From NCBI GenBank assembly GCA_965116925.1, contig OZ220744.1, forward strand, positions 2,144,001 to 2,208,000: a DNA stretch of 64,000 nt. Reading direction: 5' to 3'. The notes under the pieces were generated by a model. It was given only the letters and a program-made list of their open reading frames with translations, was not told the DNA's origin and did no database searches. Within the stretch, counting starts at the first letter, position 1, and each line of letters opens with the position of its first letter. This DNA is from Candidatus Poribacteria bacterium. Lineage in GTDB: Bacteria > Poribacteria > WGA-4E > PCPOR2b. Shown here in pieces: positions 22,613-26,175 of the stretch. Position numbers and translations under genes: made by a program.

Positions 22613-22737
22613 AAAGAGCTTGAAACGTGATGCGTGAAACGTGAAAACTATTGGTTCATTAGCTCATTGGTGCAGTCGGTCTTGGAACATCTGCTTTTCG
22701 GCTTCTGTTGCACAACCACTTAACATGAACCAAGATT

Positions 22738-25700
22738 TTATCGCCTGATTTTCATACGAGGATGCCAATGTTCGATTAGGTTAGATGGGATTTCGCGGAG
22801 GAACATCGATCCTCCCCGCTCATAGCCATCTTGGCGGCGGAGGACAGACGTGAGATAAAGCCGCGCTTGAGCGCGAGTCATACCAACGTAGAACAGGCGT
22901 CGTTCCTCCTCAATTTCCTCTAACGATTCATTGCTACGCCAAATCGGGAATGTTCCCTGCTCCAGCCCCATGATAATCACGACCGGGAATTCTGTTCCCT
23001 TTGCTGTATGCAGCGTCATCAACGTGATTTTGTCCTCTTCAATCTCTACTTCATCGGCACTGTTAATCAACTTCTGATAATCGAGAAAATTGGTGAGGTG
23101 CCTTTCAACACTAGTCGTTTCAAAATGTAAAACGCCGTTCATGAACCTTGCGCGTCTCGCCTCCCAATCCCTGTCTTCTGGTGATTCCTCAAGCTGCGTT
23201 TGCTTGAGTATATTAATCAGGTCTTGAAGCGATTGTTTCTCCGTAGGTTGCAGATCCGTTTCAAGCCAATCTAGATCTGGCGGATGTGTCCGAACATACC
23301 GCGCAGCAGCTTGGTAATAGGTTTTTATTCCGCCTGCCGTCTCTGCATCCATTCCGAGGTCCTGTTGGTCCCGTTGAGCAGCAAGGATCCCAATTCCGAC
23401 CAACGGTAAGAGTTCGGGCAGGGATTTCACTTCACGGCGGCGCAGATCCTCTTTGATCAGTTCATCAAACACCTCGTGATTGACCCGTACGTCCTCAATC
23501 GCTTGGTGCATAGTACCATGCTCGATATTGAATTTGGTCGCAAGGGCTTCTAAACTACAGCTTTCACGTGGATAGAGACGTTGCGCTGTGGCAAGGGTAT
23601 CGTAGTAAGGATTAGAAAGTCCATGCTTCAGATATTTTCCGAGGTCCCGTTCAAGCACAAGATTATCAAAATCGGCGATATTGTGTCCGATGAGGATGCG
23701 ATCTTGGATGAAACTCAGAAACTGTGGTAGCACAATCTCAATGCCCGGCTCATTTGCTACAGTCTCGTTGTCAATACCGTGGATAGTCGTACTCGATTTC
23801 GGGATCCTGCCTGTCGGTTTGACATATTGATGGTAGCTTTGAACCTTACTTCCAATTGCGCTTAAACGATTCGCATAGATCTCAATAATCTCCGCAGTTT
23901 TCGGGTTATTGTCTATCGTTTCGAGGTCGTAGACAATCATGTCCGCAAGGTTTGGCTTTTCAAAGCTGCTCAAGAGTCGTTGACACAGTTTTAATGCGGT
24001 AACGCTGCGAGATTGAGTGAGCTGCGATTTGTTGAGTTGGATGACGTTTGCATCTGCACCGGTCGCAGAGCCGAGCAGGATTGTTGTATCTTTGCGTTCA
24101 GGCAGCTCTCCAAAGTCCCCAATTAGGATGTTGACCCCACTCTCATCCACTGTCGGGGTCAGGGAAAAATCGGGAGGCAGAAGATCTATATAAATTGTGA
24201 GGTTGAGGTATCGCTCCAACGTCAACCGAATAATGTGGGCAGCACAGTAAGAATCAATCCCGTAGTTTGCTGTCAGATGGATGGGATCTCCACGGTCAAT
24301 GGCACTATACAGGGTATCTGTCGCAGCGCGAAGTCCGGGGATTTCCGATTGATTTTCCATCTTGTGCATGTCTTCGGATTGGTACGGACTGCGTCTCTGC
24401 GAAAGGAGATCGAAGAGCCGGATCGCGATGGTATGTATCTGTTCACCTTCAATCCCATTATGAAAATTATCAATCTGTTGGAAGAATTGACGTACATTCC
24501 AACGGGTGAAGGGCCCCACATCGTCTGGATAGTCATCAATTTTTCTGAGCAGTTCAATTAGCGTAACACCTTTCTGTTGTGCTAGCCACTTCAACCGGAC
24601 CAACGTGAGGTCGTCGATTAGCTGCTGTGGAAAATTGACTGCCTTCTCAATATCGCGGGGGAGTTGCCACTGGACGAAGTTCAGATAGGAGAGAATCCCT
24701 TGTGCGTGTTCCTCCTGGAAGGAGTTGATCCGTCCAATACGCTGAAACCCGACGCGCTCTTGGTGCAGCCGATCGACTAACGTATCTGCCAATTGGTGGG
24801 TGCGGTAGAAAACCCCGATGTCACCGTAGGAGTAATGTCGTCCTTCCACCAGTTTCCGAATCAACGTAATAACGTGGTTTGCCTCTGTATCAGGGGTGTC
24901 TAACGTGTAGTGATAGAGAGTGTTTCCAGCGTCCTTGTGCGTTTTCAGAACGCTCTCCTTCTGGCGTGTATTTTTGGCAATCACCGCCCCCGCAGCGCGC
25001 AGGATCCGCTCACTGCACCGATAATGTTCTTCTAACTCAACCACCGTTGGCTTGAAATCTTTCTTGAATTGTTCAATATATTGGGGACTGGAGCCGCGCC
25101 AGCTATAGATAGATTGATCTTCGTCCGCTACGACCATCACGTTATGTTGAGGAGCGTGGGAGAGGAGTTTGAGCAGGGTATACTGTGCAGCGTTAATATC
25201 TTGGTATTCATCAACGAGGATGAAGCGGATGTCATTGTGGTACTTTGCCCGAATGTCAGGCACCTGTTCAAGCACTTCGACAGATTTGGAGATCAGATCA
25301 TCGAAGTCAAGGGCGTTATGAGCGGCGAGTTTTGTCTGATAAGCTTTGAGCAGATCAGTAATGTCTTGCACTTGCACCGGATCGTCAATAACTGTTCCAT
25401 CACCTAGCCAAATTTCATTTTGATTAGCGGTTGGATCTTCCAACTTCACCTTGTACGCACCGATGATGTCGCGCAGCATCCACGGGGGGTAGGTGAGCCG
25501 ATTCTGACGAAGTTCGCGTAGACATTCGATTAGTACCTCTTCCTGTGTCTCCTGACTGAAAATTGCGAAGTTTACCCCCAGCCCAATTTCTTCTGAGTGC
25601 TGACGGAGCAGGCGGACGCAAAAGGCGTGGAATGTATGGATACGAACCTCTAACCCTTGCGTTGTGCCGAGCAGTTCTTTGATCCGATCAAGCATCTCCT

Positions 25701-25893
25701 GTGCGGCTTTGTTCGTGAAGGTAACGGCAAAAATCTGCTGCGGTGCTACCTGATGGTTTCGGATAAGATGTGCAATTCGGTGGGTAATGACATTTGTCTT
25801 GCCCGTGCCCGGTCCTGCTACCACCAGCATCGCACCGTCGGTATGGGCTGCGGCTTGCTGTTGCTTTTCATTGAGTTCCTGTAGGAGTTCCAT
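22738..25893 (-). CDS. UvrD/PcrA-family SF1 helicase with an inserted degenerate RecJ-like DHH segment and a nested DEDDh 3'-5' exonuclease
   Basis: AGPGTGKT, TFTNKAA, VDEYQD, QSIYSWRG, TLHTAKGTEF, EERRLFYVGMTRA; internal YDLET / GHNIADFD / HQAIED; GAGGTG RBS before ATG 25893. Confidence 0.9.
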   Translation of the reverse strand: MELLQELNEKQQQAAAHTDGAMLVVAGPGTGKTNVITHRIAHLIRNHQVAPQQIFAVTFTNKAAQEMLDRIKELLGTTQGLEVRIHTFHAFCVRLLRQHSEEIGLGVNFAIFSQETQEEVLIECLRELRQNRLTYPPWMLRDIIGAYKVKLEDPTANQNEIWLGDGTVIDDPVQVQDITDLLKAYQTKLAAHNALDFDDLISKSVEVLEQVPDIRAKYHNDIRFILVDEYQDINAAQYTLLKLLSHAPQHNVMVVADEDQSIYSWRGSSPQYIEQFKKDFKPTVVELEEHYRCSERILRAAGAVIAKNTRQKESVLKTHKDAGNTLYHYTLDTPDTEANHVITLIRKLVEGRHYSYGDIGVFYRTHQLADTLVDRLHQERVGFQRIGRINSFQEEHAQGILSYLNFVQWQLPRDIEKAVNFPQQLIDDLTLVRLKWLAQQKGVTLIELLRKIDDYPDDVGPFTRWNVRQFFQQIDNFHNGIEGEQIHTIAIRLFDLLSQRRSPYQSEDMHKMENQSEIPGLRAATDTLYSAIDRGDPIHLTANYGIDSYCAAHIIRLTLERYLNLTIYIDLLPPDFSLTPTVDESGVNILIGDFGELPERKDTTILLGSATGADANVIQLNKSQLTQSRSVTALKLCQRLLSSFEKPNLADMIVYDLETIDNNPKTAEIIEIYANRLSAIGSKVQSYHQYVKPTGRIPKSSTTIHGIDNETVANEPGIEIVLPQFLSFIQDRILIGHNIADFDNLVLERDLGKYLKHGLSNPYYDTLATAQRLYPRESCSLEALATKFNIEHGTMHQAIEDVRVNHEVFDELIKEDLRRREVKSLPELLPLVGIGILAAQRDQQDLGMDAETAGGIKTYYQAAARYVRTHPPDLDWLETDLQPTEKQSLQDLINILKQTQLEESPEDRDWEARRARFMNGVLHFETTSVERHLTNFLDYQKLINSADEVEIEEDKITLMTLHTAKGTEFPVVIIMGLEQGTFPIWRSNESLEEIEEERRLFYVGMTRAQARLYLTSVLRRQDGYERGGSMFLREIPSNLIEHWHPRMKIRR

Positions 25894-26005: not shown

Positions 26006-26175
26006 TATAGTGAATTCAAAAAATAAAGGAACACTTGCGCCGCCCGGTAGGTGCGGTTAGAAACCGCACCGCATCGGCGCAGTTAGAAACAGCGCCTACC
26101 AAACAGGAGAACGGTAGTTTCATTTTCCTAACCGCACCGGTTTGGCGTGTCCCATTAATTCTAAAATCTACTATG
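26006..26175 (-). mobile_element. Family A MITE, expanded 170-bp copy in reverse orientation
   Basis: TATAGTGAATTCAAAAAATAAA...CATTAATTCTAAAATCTACTATG; extra GTAGGTGCGGTTAGAAACCGCACC hairpin inside. Confidence 0.75.

Follow-up and report, generated by a model that had tools for sequence, protein, structure and literature searches.

In the 3'-directed excision of DNA strands the helicase UvrD and the exonucleases ExoI and ExoX act as separate proteins, and the nuclease of AddA, RecB and AdnAB is a C-terminal PD-(D/E)xK domain within a multi-subunit end-resection machine. For the Staphylococcus aureus enzyme ExoDinG one report indicates that crosslink repair requires both the helicase and the exonuclease activities (PMC12345164). 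The regulation of UvrD-family motors by their 2B subdomain is an active question, and a recent account describes activation via 2B-2B dimerisation (PMC13238157). In the description of RecJ from Deinococcus radiodurans six residues (D79, D81, D83, D135, H159 and D223) serve as metal ligands and DNA is bound in the groove between the DHH and DHHA1 domains (PMC4846377). A literature search, mainly of open-access texts without their supplements, gave no description of a UvrD::RecJ::DEDDh or a RecJ::DEDDh protein.

The window analysed here is a stretch of 64,000 nucleotides from a Candidatus Poribacteria genome, in which ORF analysis showed 22738..25893 (-) to be a single intact gene encoding a protein of 1051 aa (Table 1); the reading frame, all the motifs quoted in a first-pass annotation and their order were found in the sequence. 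A ribosome-binding-like word, GAGGTG, lies 6 nt upstream of the ATG at 25893 and close homologues are likewise 1051 aa long, whilst promoter and terminator scans at the gene stayed at chance level. RNA-library contigs span the gene and equally its neighbours, but this coverage is no evidence of expression, because the neighbours are also covered and DNA carry-over is possible. A Pfam scan of the 1051-aa protein matched UvrD-helicase at aa 7-281, an interrupted UvrD_C at aa 286-1016 and RNase_T at aa 653-809, and gave no DHH, DHHA1 or OB match.

Table 1. Features of the gene and its protein, in window coordinates and in order along the protein
Feature	Window position	Strand	Remarks
Whole gene	22738..25893	(-)	UvrD/PcrA-like SF1A helicase with nested dead-RecJ::DEDDh insert; AF2 pLDDT 91.3, pTM 0.85
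Subdomains 1A/1B, aa 1-285	25039..25893	(-)	Motif III present; PF00580 E 4e-80
Walker A GPGTGKT	25795-25815	(-)	In subdomains 1A/1B
Walker B VDEYQD	25198-25215	(-)	In subdomains 1A/1B
Subdomain 2A, N-terminal part, aa 286-394	24712..25038	(-)	Motif IV HYR; approximate boundaries from PcrA alignment
Subdomain 2B, N-terminal part, aa ~395-502	24388..24711	(-)	Aligns with the genome's own PcrA
Dead RecJ DHH shell, N-terminal part, aa 503-648	23950..24387	(-)	ANYGIDS for GDYDVDG; last element ALKL helix; dN/dS 0.157
DEDDh (DnaQ-type) 3'-5' exonuclease domain, aa 649-812	23458..23949	(-)	D656, E658, D743, H796, D801; PF00929 E 4e-26
Dead RecJ DHH shell, C-terminal part, aa 813-870	23284..23457	(-)	LPLVGIGILAA for LDLVALGTVAD, and next helix; dN/dS 0.21
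Helical linker (to aa ~904) and last long 2B helix (aa ~905-945)	23059..23283	(-)	PcrA alignment, AF2 model
Subdomain 2A, C-terminal part, aa 946-1040	22774..23058	(-)	Motif V TLHTAKGTEF, motif VI EERRLFYVGMTRA; PF13538

The motor has the make-up of a UvrD-like SF1A helicase, with motifs I, II, III, IV, V and VI in two RecA-like domains and, by fold match and PcrA alignment, the 1B and 2B accessory subdomains. The full AF2 model could be superimposed on PcrA (2pjr_F) over 531 residues with an rmsd of 3.1 A, the 1A-1B-2A-2B fold being whole. In those representatives with a residue at the site K32 was present in 59/59, D228 in 61/61 and E229 in 60/61, and in the C-terminal part of subdomain 2A R999 and R1007 were found in 72/72 and 73/74 representatives respectively. 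Both Pfam and this conservation thus bear out the earlier statement that intact SF1 helicase motifs bracket an insert, and the motor would be expected to carry out ATP-dependent 3'-5' translocation and unwinding. Assignment as a PcrA orthologue (TIGR01073) was considered and rejected: the score was 498.9 against a cut-off of 911.2 bits, the protein ends close behind motif VI without PcrA's C-terminal extension, and the genome encodes a separate full-length PcrA. A separate canonical PcrA was in fact found in all six carrier genomes examined (this genome and 5/5 others), and in the motor tree a branch with SH-aLRT 99 separates the 33 rows of the family from the 23 of PcrA.

The insert in 2B comprises ~400 aa (aa ~503-904, window ~23182-24387). 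The first-pass annotation had recognised it but gave its length as about 320 aa, which is too short because the likeness to RecJ runs past LPLVGIG into the next helix; the RecJ alignment stops by aa ~880 and the remainder of the protein is helicase. Profiles and the predicted structure show that this shell has the fold and motif order of a RecJ DHH domain, and it has neither DHHA1 nor OB. Only one of the six metal ligands survives, D547, which is the equivalent of D. radiodurans D83 and is Asp in 49/72 representatives; the motif II Asp, the His-His of DHH and the motif IV Asp are gone, and the DHH tripeptide is absent from 95/95 family shells. It had been claimed that the DxD and DHH metal ligands were lost and DHH catalysis with them; the loss of catalysis stands, as does that of five of the six ligands, but one motif-I Asp has been kept. 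Judged by its residues, the shell is unable to hold RecJ's metals.

The likeness of the shell to RecJ is beyond chance. HH-align of the shell against canonical RecJ gave Prob 95.2 and E 2.5e-8 over 137 colinear columns, compared to Prob <=1.0 for 11 control segments or reversed shells, and the C-terminal part gave Prob 62 against canonical RecJ and 84 against RecJ::DEDDh proteins. When a shell HMM was run against 3,723 ORFs, 32/32 RecJ ORFs scored between 12.8 and 27.3 bits and the best other non-family ORF 8.9, and for both shell halves the best non-self match among this genome's 20,811 ORFs was RecJ. When all PDB sequences were searched with a profile built from the N-terminal shell, RecJ or Cdc45 made up 7/10 matches including the top six, each of them weak (E 0.037-1.3), and a fold search with the AF2 shell model placed RecJ structures in the top three positions (Z 13.1-13.5). 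These approaches thus agree with the RecJ origin originally proposed. A BLASTP comparison of the protein with this genome's RecJ gave nothing significant and phmmer with a single shell sequence against the PDB only a MurC chance match, so that the homology needs profiles to be seen. A search of the ESM Atlas with the shell alone gave no usable match, and fold searches with the full model returned helicases and DEDDh nucleases only, among the matches listed. The view that the shell is a SIS-like or generic alpha/beta domain without RecJ descent draws on phosphoheptose isomerase (a SIS protein), which reached a Z of 12.8, within 1 of the 13.5 of RecJ, and topped the Foldseek list by E-value. However, this view is largely refuted: the RecJ structures superimpose with a lower rmsd (2.8-3.1 versus 3.7 A) and their query TM-scores are higher (0.58-0.65 versus <=0.56), every sequence-profile test gives RecJ and none SIS, and RecJ::DEDDh fits both the spacing at the two junctions and the C-terminal part of the shell.

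The domain enclosed by the shell has the ExoI D-x-E, the ExoII D, the ExoIII H-x4-D and the DnaQ fold of DEDDh exonucleases, and in a fold search with the AF2 model it matched epsilon (1j53) with a Z of 23.2 and an rmsd of 1.5 A. All five DEDDh residues were present in 72/76 representatives; the other four have lost one or more of them with the insert still present. Pfam, the conserved residues and the fold match therefore confirm an intact DEDDh domain inside a RecJ-like shell, and the nested arrangement as a whole, a PcrA-like motor carrying in 2B a RecJ DHH shell that itself carries a DEDDh, stands as first described. Metal-dependent 3'-5' exonuclease activity is predicted for this domain. 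Across 18 same-genus sequences the dN/dS of the exonuclease (0.087) lay within the range of the motor (0.07-0.10), and that of the shell was higher (0.16-0.21). By these measures the motor and DEDDh motifs are intact and under purifying selection, and the shell is constrained yet relaxed, as would be expected of a scaffold. Of the two roles earlier suggested for the shell, scaffold or ssDNA-binding element, the former is also favoured because the DNA groove of RecJ lies between DHH and DHHA1, and DHHA1 is absent here.

Intact two-nuclease RecJ::DEDDh proteins exist in Elusimicrobiota-named records and in Spirochaetota genomes. They have all DHH ligands in 16/17 cases (the remaining one is cut by a contig end), together with DHHA1 and OB and without a helicase, but share with the insert the same DEDDh insertion point in the DHH domain and 364 colinear columns. 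The junction spacings are nearly equal: in the family 21 residues in 70/76 and 34 in 75/76, in the RecJ::DEDDh proteins 21 in 10/17 (range 21-23) and 33 in 13/17 (range 32-37). The earlier idea that the insert was acquired as a ready-made RecJ::DEDDh module gains from both observations; this genome's own recJ, about which the same question had been raised, was found to have no DEDDh insert. Capture of the front part of a RecJ::DEDDh gene is well supported by these comparisons as the source of the insert. It would have entered the last 2B loop of a PcrA paralogue, the DHHA1/OB part and five of the six metal ligands would then have been lost, and the product would have spread as one family. In unconstrained DEDDh-only trees the RecJ::DEDDh sequences were scattered with weak support and no donor was singled out; a tree constrained to join them to the family was not rejected (p-AU 0.82) and had the higher likelihood, which falls short of demonstrating a clade. 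The best 120 of 197 longer relatives contained no UvrD fused to a complete RecJ::DEDDh as an intermediate, which is weak evidence.

The first-pass annotation suggested a lineage-specific enzyme, but the family occurs in five phyla. It is present, mostly as a single copy, in 159/176 Poribacteria genomes, and also in Calditrichota, Gemmatimonadota, Chloroflexota and Acidobacteriota. Among the 17 Poribacteria genomes without a match are the four single-contig genomes that one genus has. A contig scan with the full alignment recovered mostly ordinary PcrA/UvrD, with one family member in 80 loci. The family was not found in the phylum to which an Ignavibacteria genome belongs (101 genomes), where five matches, all frames of ~590 aa, were judged on length only, and a sample of 81 cyanobacterial-phylum genomes gave no shorter UvrD::DEDDh type, the one long frame being a non-helicase. 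The gene is followed immediately by an intact recJ in 15/15 Calditrichota loci. No conserved repair neighbours were found at the Poribacteria, Gemmatimonadota and Chloroflexota loci compared.

On balance we lean towards an accessory 3'-5' helicase/3'-5' exonuclease that serves repair by clearing 3'-ended strands and in which the dead DHH domain is a structural mount. At a nick, gap, flap or tail the motor would load onto the 3'-ended strand and track 3'-5', whilst the DEDDh domain would degrade that same strand from its 3' end; the task would be the one shared by UvrD and ExoI/ExoX in 3'-directed excision, and ExoDinG offers a precedent for repair by a coupled helicase and DEDDh domain. The dead DHH would be a rigid mount placing the exonuclease on the swivelling 2B lobe, and the displaced 5'-ended strand would be left for the separately encoded intact RecJ. 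Such removal of the 3' strand would fit better than end resection in the usual sense, as earlier suggested, because resection yields 3' tails and a 3'-5' exonuclease would remove them. A role in excision would be redundant, since this genome also encodes ExoVII, RecJ, an AddA-sized helicase and MutS, and the repair enzyme is probably non-essential.

An alternative that we consider unlikely is that of a replication-fork helper, which would act at stalled forks, clean nascent 3' ends that are blocked or mismatched, and so unite the roles of Escherichia coli YoaA, HolC (chi) and DnaQ in one chain. YoaA belongs to the 5'-3' DinG/XPD family and SF1A motors go 3'-5', so that the polarity of the two motors is opposite. 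The gene provides the only PF00929 (DnaQ-type) match in this 99%-complete genome, but four Poribacteria without the gene have no PF00929 match at all and the family gene is therefore not an essential proofreader. Likewise, holC lies directly upstream in 6/6 Calditrichota loci, and is the sole holC match in the one Calditrichota carrier genome searched, but HolC had no match in this genome, in one further genome of the Poribacteria or in two carriers from the Gemmatimonadota. The removal of AZT-blocked ends by YoaA-chi-DnaQ, as one study reports (PMC4636137), is the precedent for this role. A rather more doubtful proposal makes the dead RecJ domain a bacterial Cdc45-like pseudo-nuclease regulator, which would hold the autoinhibitory 2B open and let a monomer unwind without a 2B-2B dimer, the 3' strand being passed to the DEDDh and the displaced 5' strand digested by intact RecJ. 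If true, this would be a two-gene both-strand DNA-processing machine, independent of RecBCD/AddAB and descended from an unrecognised bidirectional RecJ::DEDDh nuclease.

Quite improbable, too, is an enzyme that cleans ends for LigD/Ku end joining, or an RNA/R-loop nuclease with the motor as a translocase only. Neither LigD nor Ku was among the 30 neighbour proteins scanned in 20 neighbourhoods, and neither recurred across loci. A further argument against this reading is that the protein is without the C-terminal extension present in the genome's own PcrA, the RNA-polymerase-binding domain. In its favour, S. aureus ExoDinG is described in one source as degrading both ssDNA and ssRNA (PMC11981726). 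Least probable of these functions is an anti-phage defence component, a GajB-like helicase with a built-in nuclease, for which the PADLOC GajB and RT-associated helicase models match the motor. These matches are limited to the generic UvrD core, however, and in Poribacteria nearly every genome has the gene, without a conserved partner beside it, whilst its setting in Calditrichota is one of housekeeping genes. Gabija itself was rejected, as no conserved gajA nuclease partner was seen in the 21 neighbourhoods compared.

The preferred reading, a repair enzyme acting on 3'-ended strands, would make this an apparently unstudied DNA-repair family in several bacterial phyla, an uncharacterised group of SF1A helicase-nucleases. 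Since the dead RecJ shell lies below the reach of Pfam, annotation pipelines label its members simply "UvrD + exonuclease". RecJ with an inserted DEDDh is apparently a second undescribed group and would join 5'-3' and 3'-5' nucleases in one chain. The natural 400-residue graft in 2B, kept in five phyla, makes 2B regulation directly testable, and the protein is a clear case of three-level domain nesting with a living donor type.

Comparison with PcrA, UvrD and Rep (PDB 2pjr, 2is1, 1uaa) reveals intact motifs I-VI and, over the N-terminal 520 aa, 33% identity with the PcrA of the same genome; the family differs in the ~400-aa 2B insert, the missing C-terminal extension, its separate branch in the motor tree and the true PcrA alongside. 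From RecJ, a 5'-3' ssDNA exonuclease (PDB 1ir6, 2zxo, 5f54, 8y30), it has the DHH fold, with the motifs in the same order starting at the first helix and extending through the motif IV helix, but with the metal site and accessory domains lost, split by a DEDDh and placed inside a helicase. Cdc45, entries for which are among the shell matches, is alike in that a RecJ-derived DHH domain serves a helicase without being its nuclease, but it is a separate subunit of a hexameric replicative helicase whereas here a partial domain is fused into a bacterial SF1A enzyme, and the parallel is an analogy only. AddA, RecB and AdnAB also combine an SF1A motor with its own nuclease, whereas here that nuclease is a DEDDh in 2B and there is no conserved partner subunit gene. 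ExoDinG of S. aureus and Bacillus subtilis (DinG plus DEDDh; PDB 9ii8) likewise joins a helicase and a DEDDh 3'-5' exonuclease in a single chain; membership of that group was rejected on the SF1 motor and the internal DEDDh. ExoDinG has an SF2 5'-3' motor and an N-terminal exonuclease, whereas the protein described here is SF1A, with a predicted equal polarity of motor and nuclease and a two-level nesting.

The gene under study (see the table) has the nested organisation put forward in the first-pass annotation, a UvrD helicase whose RecJ-like insert itself holds a DEDDh exonuclease, as borne out by its reading frame, its Pfam matches and the profile and fold tests described below. Pfam places UvrD-helicase at aa 7-281, an interrupted UvrD_C at 286-1016 and RNase_T at 653-809, with no match to the DHH family in the 1051-aa protein, and the TIGR01073 PcrA model scores it at 499 bits against a cut-off of 911. 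The parts alignable to the PcrA of the source genome (G000) are aa 2-518 and about 887-1050, the ~400 extra residues (about 503-904) lying in the loop preceding the last long helix of 2B. An AF2 model of the whole protein, made from a 95-row alignment (pLDDT 91.3, pTM 0.85), superposed 531 residues on PcrA 2pjr_F with an rmsd of 3.1 A, and its match to the Pol III epsilon exonuclease 1j53 had Z 23.2 and rmsd 1.5 A. Subdomain 2B is thus intact, and the exonuclease has a complete DnaQ fold. In a set of 76 representative sequences the Walker A Lys was conserved in 59/59 with residues at that site, the Walker B Asp in 61/61 and Glu in 60/61, and motif VI R999 in 72/72, and all five DEDDh residues were present in 72 of the 76. 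Some Poribacteria members (L057 in G063 and L053 in G017) have lost DEDDh catalytic residues yet retain the whole insert, each thus having two dead nucleases nested inside a helicase. Homologs that bear names are Candidatus Poribacteria. Because the fusion recurs in many genomes and its internal junctions are bridged by contigs from other runs, it is not an assembly artefact.

Features of the fusion gene, its flanks and related loci (G000, source genome; L, loci; P, proteins)
Feature	Location or identifiers	Strand	Details
Helicase::dead RecJ::DEDDh gene	window 22738-25893	minus	single uninterrupted ORF, 1051 aa
Dispersed intergenic repeat	window 22621-22662		165 blastn matches in G000 (113 >=25 nt)
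Dispersed intergenic repeat	window 26040-26175		493 blastn matches in G000 (467 >=25 nt)
Canonical RecJ of G000	G000:C1:1452076-1454688		871-aa frame; GDYDVDG, TVDCG, DHH motifs intact
holC - helicase::dead RecJ::DEDDh - intact recJ	L260-L265 and L239-L253		phylum of a Calditrichia genome
RecJ::DEDDh proteins	P0189, P0206, P0208, P0210, P0216, P0253, P0269; L295-L304		Elusimicrobiota-named records, Spirochaetota genomes

The RecJ origin proposed for the segments flanking the exonuclease (the shell; N-shell aa 503-648, C-shell aa 813-870) was upheld by five tests. When 177,635 PDB sequences were searched with a profile built on aa 505-648 of 31 Poribacteria sequences, ten matches came up at E<=10, of which seven, the top six among them, were RecJ/Cdc45, each individually weak (E 0.037-1.3). 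A shell HMM built from the 95-row alignment gave 32/32 RecJ ORFs, from 30 genomes, scores of 12.8-27.3 bits; outside RecJ and the family, the highest score among 3,723 ORFs was 8.9. The HMM also matched residues 69-223 of a Chloroflexi RecJ at 29.8 bits. Among the 20,811 ORFs of G000 the best non-self match of both shell halves was RecJ (E 0.002 and 0.13). HH-alignment with ten canonical RecJ sequences gave the N-shell Prob 95.2 (E 2.5e-8, 137 colinear columns) and the C-shell Prob 62, as against Prob <=1.0 for all controls (nine segments from outside the shell, and two shells in reverse). When the N-shell modelled alone (pLDDT 86.4) was compared with 48,161 chains, three RecJ structures ranked best (Z 13.1-13.5, rmsd 2.8-3.1 A, 130-134 residues aligned), but the fold by itself is not decisive since a SIS-domain isomerase, with Z 12.8 at an rmsd of 3.7 A, ties on Z and heads the Foldseek list by E-value. 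Profiles and models together point firmly to a RecJ-derived shell, and a shell of other descent is hardly credible.

In D. radiodurans RecJ two metals are held by D79, D81, D83, D135, H159 and D223, and DNA is bound between DHH and DHHA1 (PMC4846377). The HH-alignment equivalents are N543, G545, D547, a gap, a gap and A839 respectively. The suggested loss of metal ligands is thus correct for five of the six and for the DHH tripeptide, which occurs in none of the 95 shells examined, but one motif Asp, D547, is kept (Asp in 49 of 72 representatives). DHHA1 and OB domains are absent from the query, and the protein is RecJ-derived and not an active DHH enzyme. Pooled pairs from 18 same-genus sequences (dS about 0.9, pairs not independent) gave dN/dS of 0.157 and 0.210 for the shell halves, with the motor at 0.07-0.10 and the exonuclease at 0.087, ratios by which the shell is still under constraint. 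The N-shell HMM matched 12/15 Calditrichota loci but only 3/12 Gemmatimonadota loci, and by these counts the shell is more eroded outside Poribacteria.

It had also been supposed that 2B acquired a ready-made RecJ::DEDDh module, and such proteins, an intact RecJ with DEDDh inserted and no helicase, do exist with near-identical junction spacings. The best 150 matches of the insert in a 50%-identity library comprised 84 helicase-linked proteins, eight RecJ with DEDDh, 57 other DEDDh proteins and one unclassified; seven RecJ::DEDDh proteins scanned all had DHH, RNase_T, DHHA1 and RecJ_OB, and two clusters bear Elusimicrobiota names. At E<=1e-150 a RecJ::DEDDh profile matched 25 of 121 genomes sharing a phylum with a Spirochaetota genome, and the insert was confirmed in 10/10 sequences fetched. 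All DHH ligands are present in 16 of 17 such proteins, the remaining one being truncated at a contig end, and DEDDh in all 17; they are probably two nucleases of opposite polarity on one chain. The whole insert aligned with them over 364 colinear columns, the score being dominated by the exonuclease. A spacing of 21 separates the FKL-helix Lys and the first ExoI Asp in 70/76 family members (UvrD::dead RecJ::DEDDh helicases), compared with 21-23 in 17/17 RecJ::DEDDh; at the other junction, the ExoIII Asp and the motif IV Gly are separated by 34 in 75/76 family members and by 33 in 13/17 RecJ::DEDDh. A single capture of a RecJ::DEDDh front half would be the simplest reading. Against it, RecJ::DEDDh rows are scattered in free DEDDh trees with weak support; a tree constrained to unite them with the family is not rejected (p-AU 0.82), a result compatible with that grouping rather than evidence for it. 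The best 120 of 197 longer relatives included no UvrD with a complete RecJ::DEDDh; proteins of ~1850 aa with RecJ domains (P0295-P0297, two with a Toprim match) also turned up in that search.

The helicase had been thought possibly lineage-specific, a view contradicted by the architecture survey, in which it also occurred in Calditrichota, Gemmatimonadota, Chloroflexota and Acidobacteriota. Carriers made up 159/176 Poribacteria genomes (124/133 high-quality; 26/31 genera), and in genus g6 the four single-contig genomes were all non-carriers. The other counts are lower bounds because the search profile was built from Poribacteria: 41/78 in the phylum of a Calditrichia genome (judged by extent and score of the match; 15 verified), 40/120 in that of a Gemmatimonadetes genome by match extent (one unpublished genome and one short DnaQ left out), 3/251 in the Chloroflexota sample, 2/121 in the Acidobacteriota sample and none among 101 genomes sharing a phylum with an Ignavibacteria genome. 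Helicase and exonuclease shared one frame in 11 of 12 Gemmatimonadetes-phylum loci checked, the other being cut by a contig end. A motor-core tree (406 columns; 56 of 126 rows used, with a second, shorter UvrD-like paralog and a duplicate dropped) set 33 family rows apart from 23 PcrA/UvrD rows with SH-aLRT 99. Full-length PcrA was also present in 5/5 non-Poribacteria carriers checked, and the protein is an SF1A UvrD-like helicase, not a PcrA ortholog. Two Poribacteria of genus g9 (loci L071 in G020:C28 and L072 in G027:C1) have the fusion gene duplicated in tandem, 3.4 kb apart, each copy sharing about 50-60% identity with the insert of the query. ESM Atlas rows 4-12 hold UvrD+RNase_T clusters of 825-880 aa, too short for a full DHH shell, commonest in Cyanobacteriota and Bacillota and found also in Bacteroidota and some phage.

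G000 (6.47 Mb, 99% complete) encodes a separate canonical PcrA (753-aa frame), ExoVII and MutS, and its RecJ, which the first-pass annotation had proposed checking for a DEDDh insert, is canonical and has none. RecJ scored above the cut-off in 60 of 61 Poribacteria genomes searched, and none of the match spans listed could accommodate an insert of 170 aa. Poribacteria RecJ frames are of 845-930 aa, with a ~280-aa C-terminal extension past the RecJ model, and in one genome a frame of 1860 aa, matched by RecJ several times in tandem (G025:C1:2707131-2713913), adjoins another recJ. The sole PF00929 match in G000 is the DEDDh of the fusion. Four Poribacteria without the fusion gene (G033, G035, G018 and G058; 91-95% complete) gave no PF00929 match, which suggests that they replicate without a DnaQ-type proofreader.

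SF1A motors travel 3'-5' and DEDDh enzymes require a 3' end. The motor-tracked strand would trail its 3' end, on which a tethered 3'-5' exonuclease would naturally act; the displaced strand would present a 5' end, a RecJ substrate. The reading we favour, put at somewhat better than even, is a repair enzyme that excises 3'-ended strands and unites both activities in one chain; the dead DHH would serve as its mount on 2B, and RecJ would act in trans. In Calditrichota an intact canonical recJ lies directly downstream of the fusion gene on the same strand at 15/15 loci and holC upstream at 6/6, an order that may reflect one event as the genomes are kin; smg-like, topA and xerC-like genes are nearby in five loci. 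Searches of G000 and three other carriers gave no HolC match, and the presence of HolC in the Calditrichia-phylum lineage is of note because a control search matched only E. coli and Caulobacter. An unlikely alternative function is the cleaning of nascent 3' ends at replication forks, in the manner of YoaA-chi-DnaQ (PMC4636137).

No conserved neighbours were found across Poribacteria, Gemmatimonadota or Chloroflexota loci, many with flanks of only 1.5 kb. End-joining or RNA roles are rather doubtful, and a defence role is very improbable. In the window the gene lies between what we take to be an ABC-transporter operon and a phosphodiesterase-like gene. Its two flanking repeat families have very high depth in sequencing runs, and the longer repeat looks palindromic and REP/MITE-like.

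Newly established here are the per-phylum counts of the family, the fusion as the only DnaQ-type domain of G000, the holC-helicase-recJ gene order and an intact RecJ::DEDDh donor type whose junctions match. The literature searched yielded no description of a UvrD::RecJ::DEDDh helicase or of RecJ::DEDDh proteins. Among known systems, the fusion protein would work like ExoDinG or AddA, but is a member of neither.
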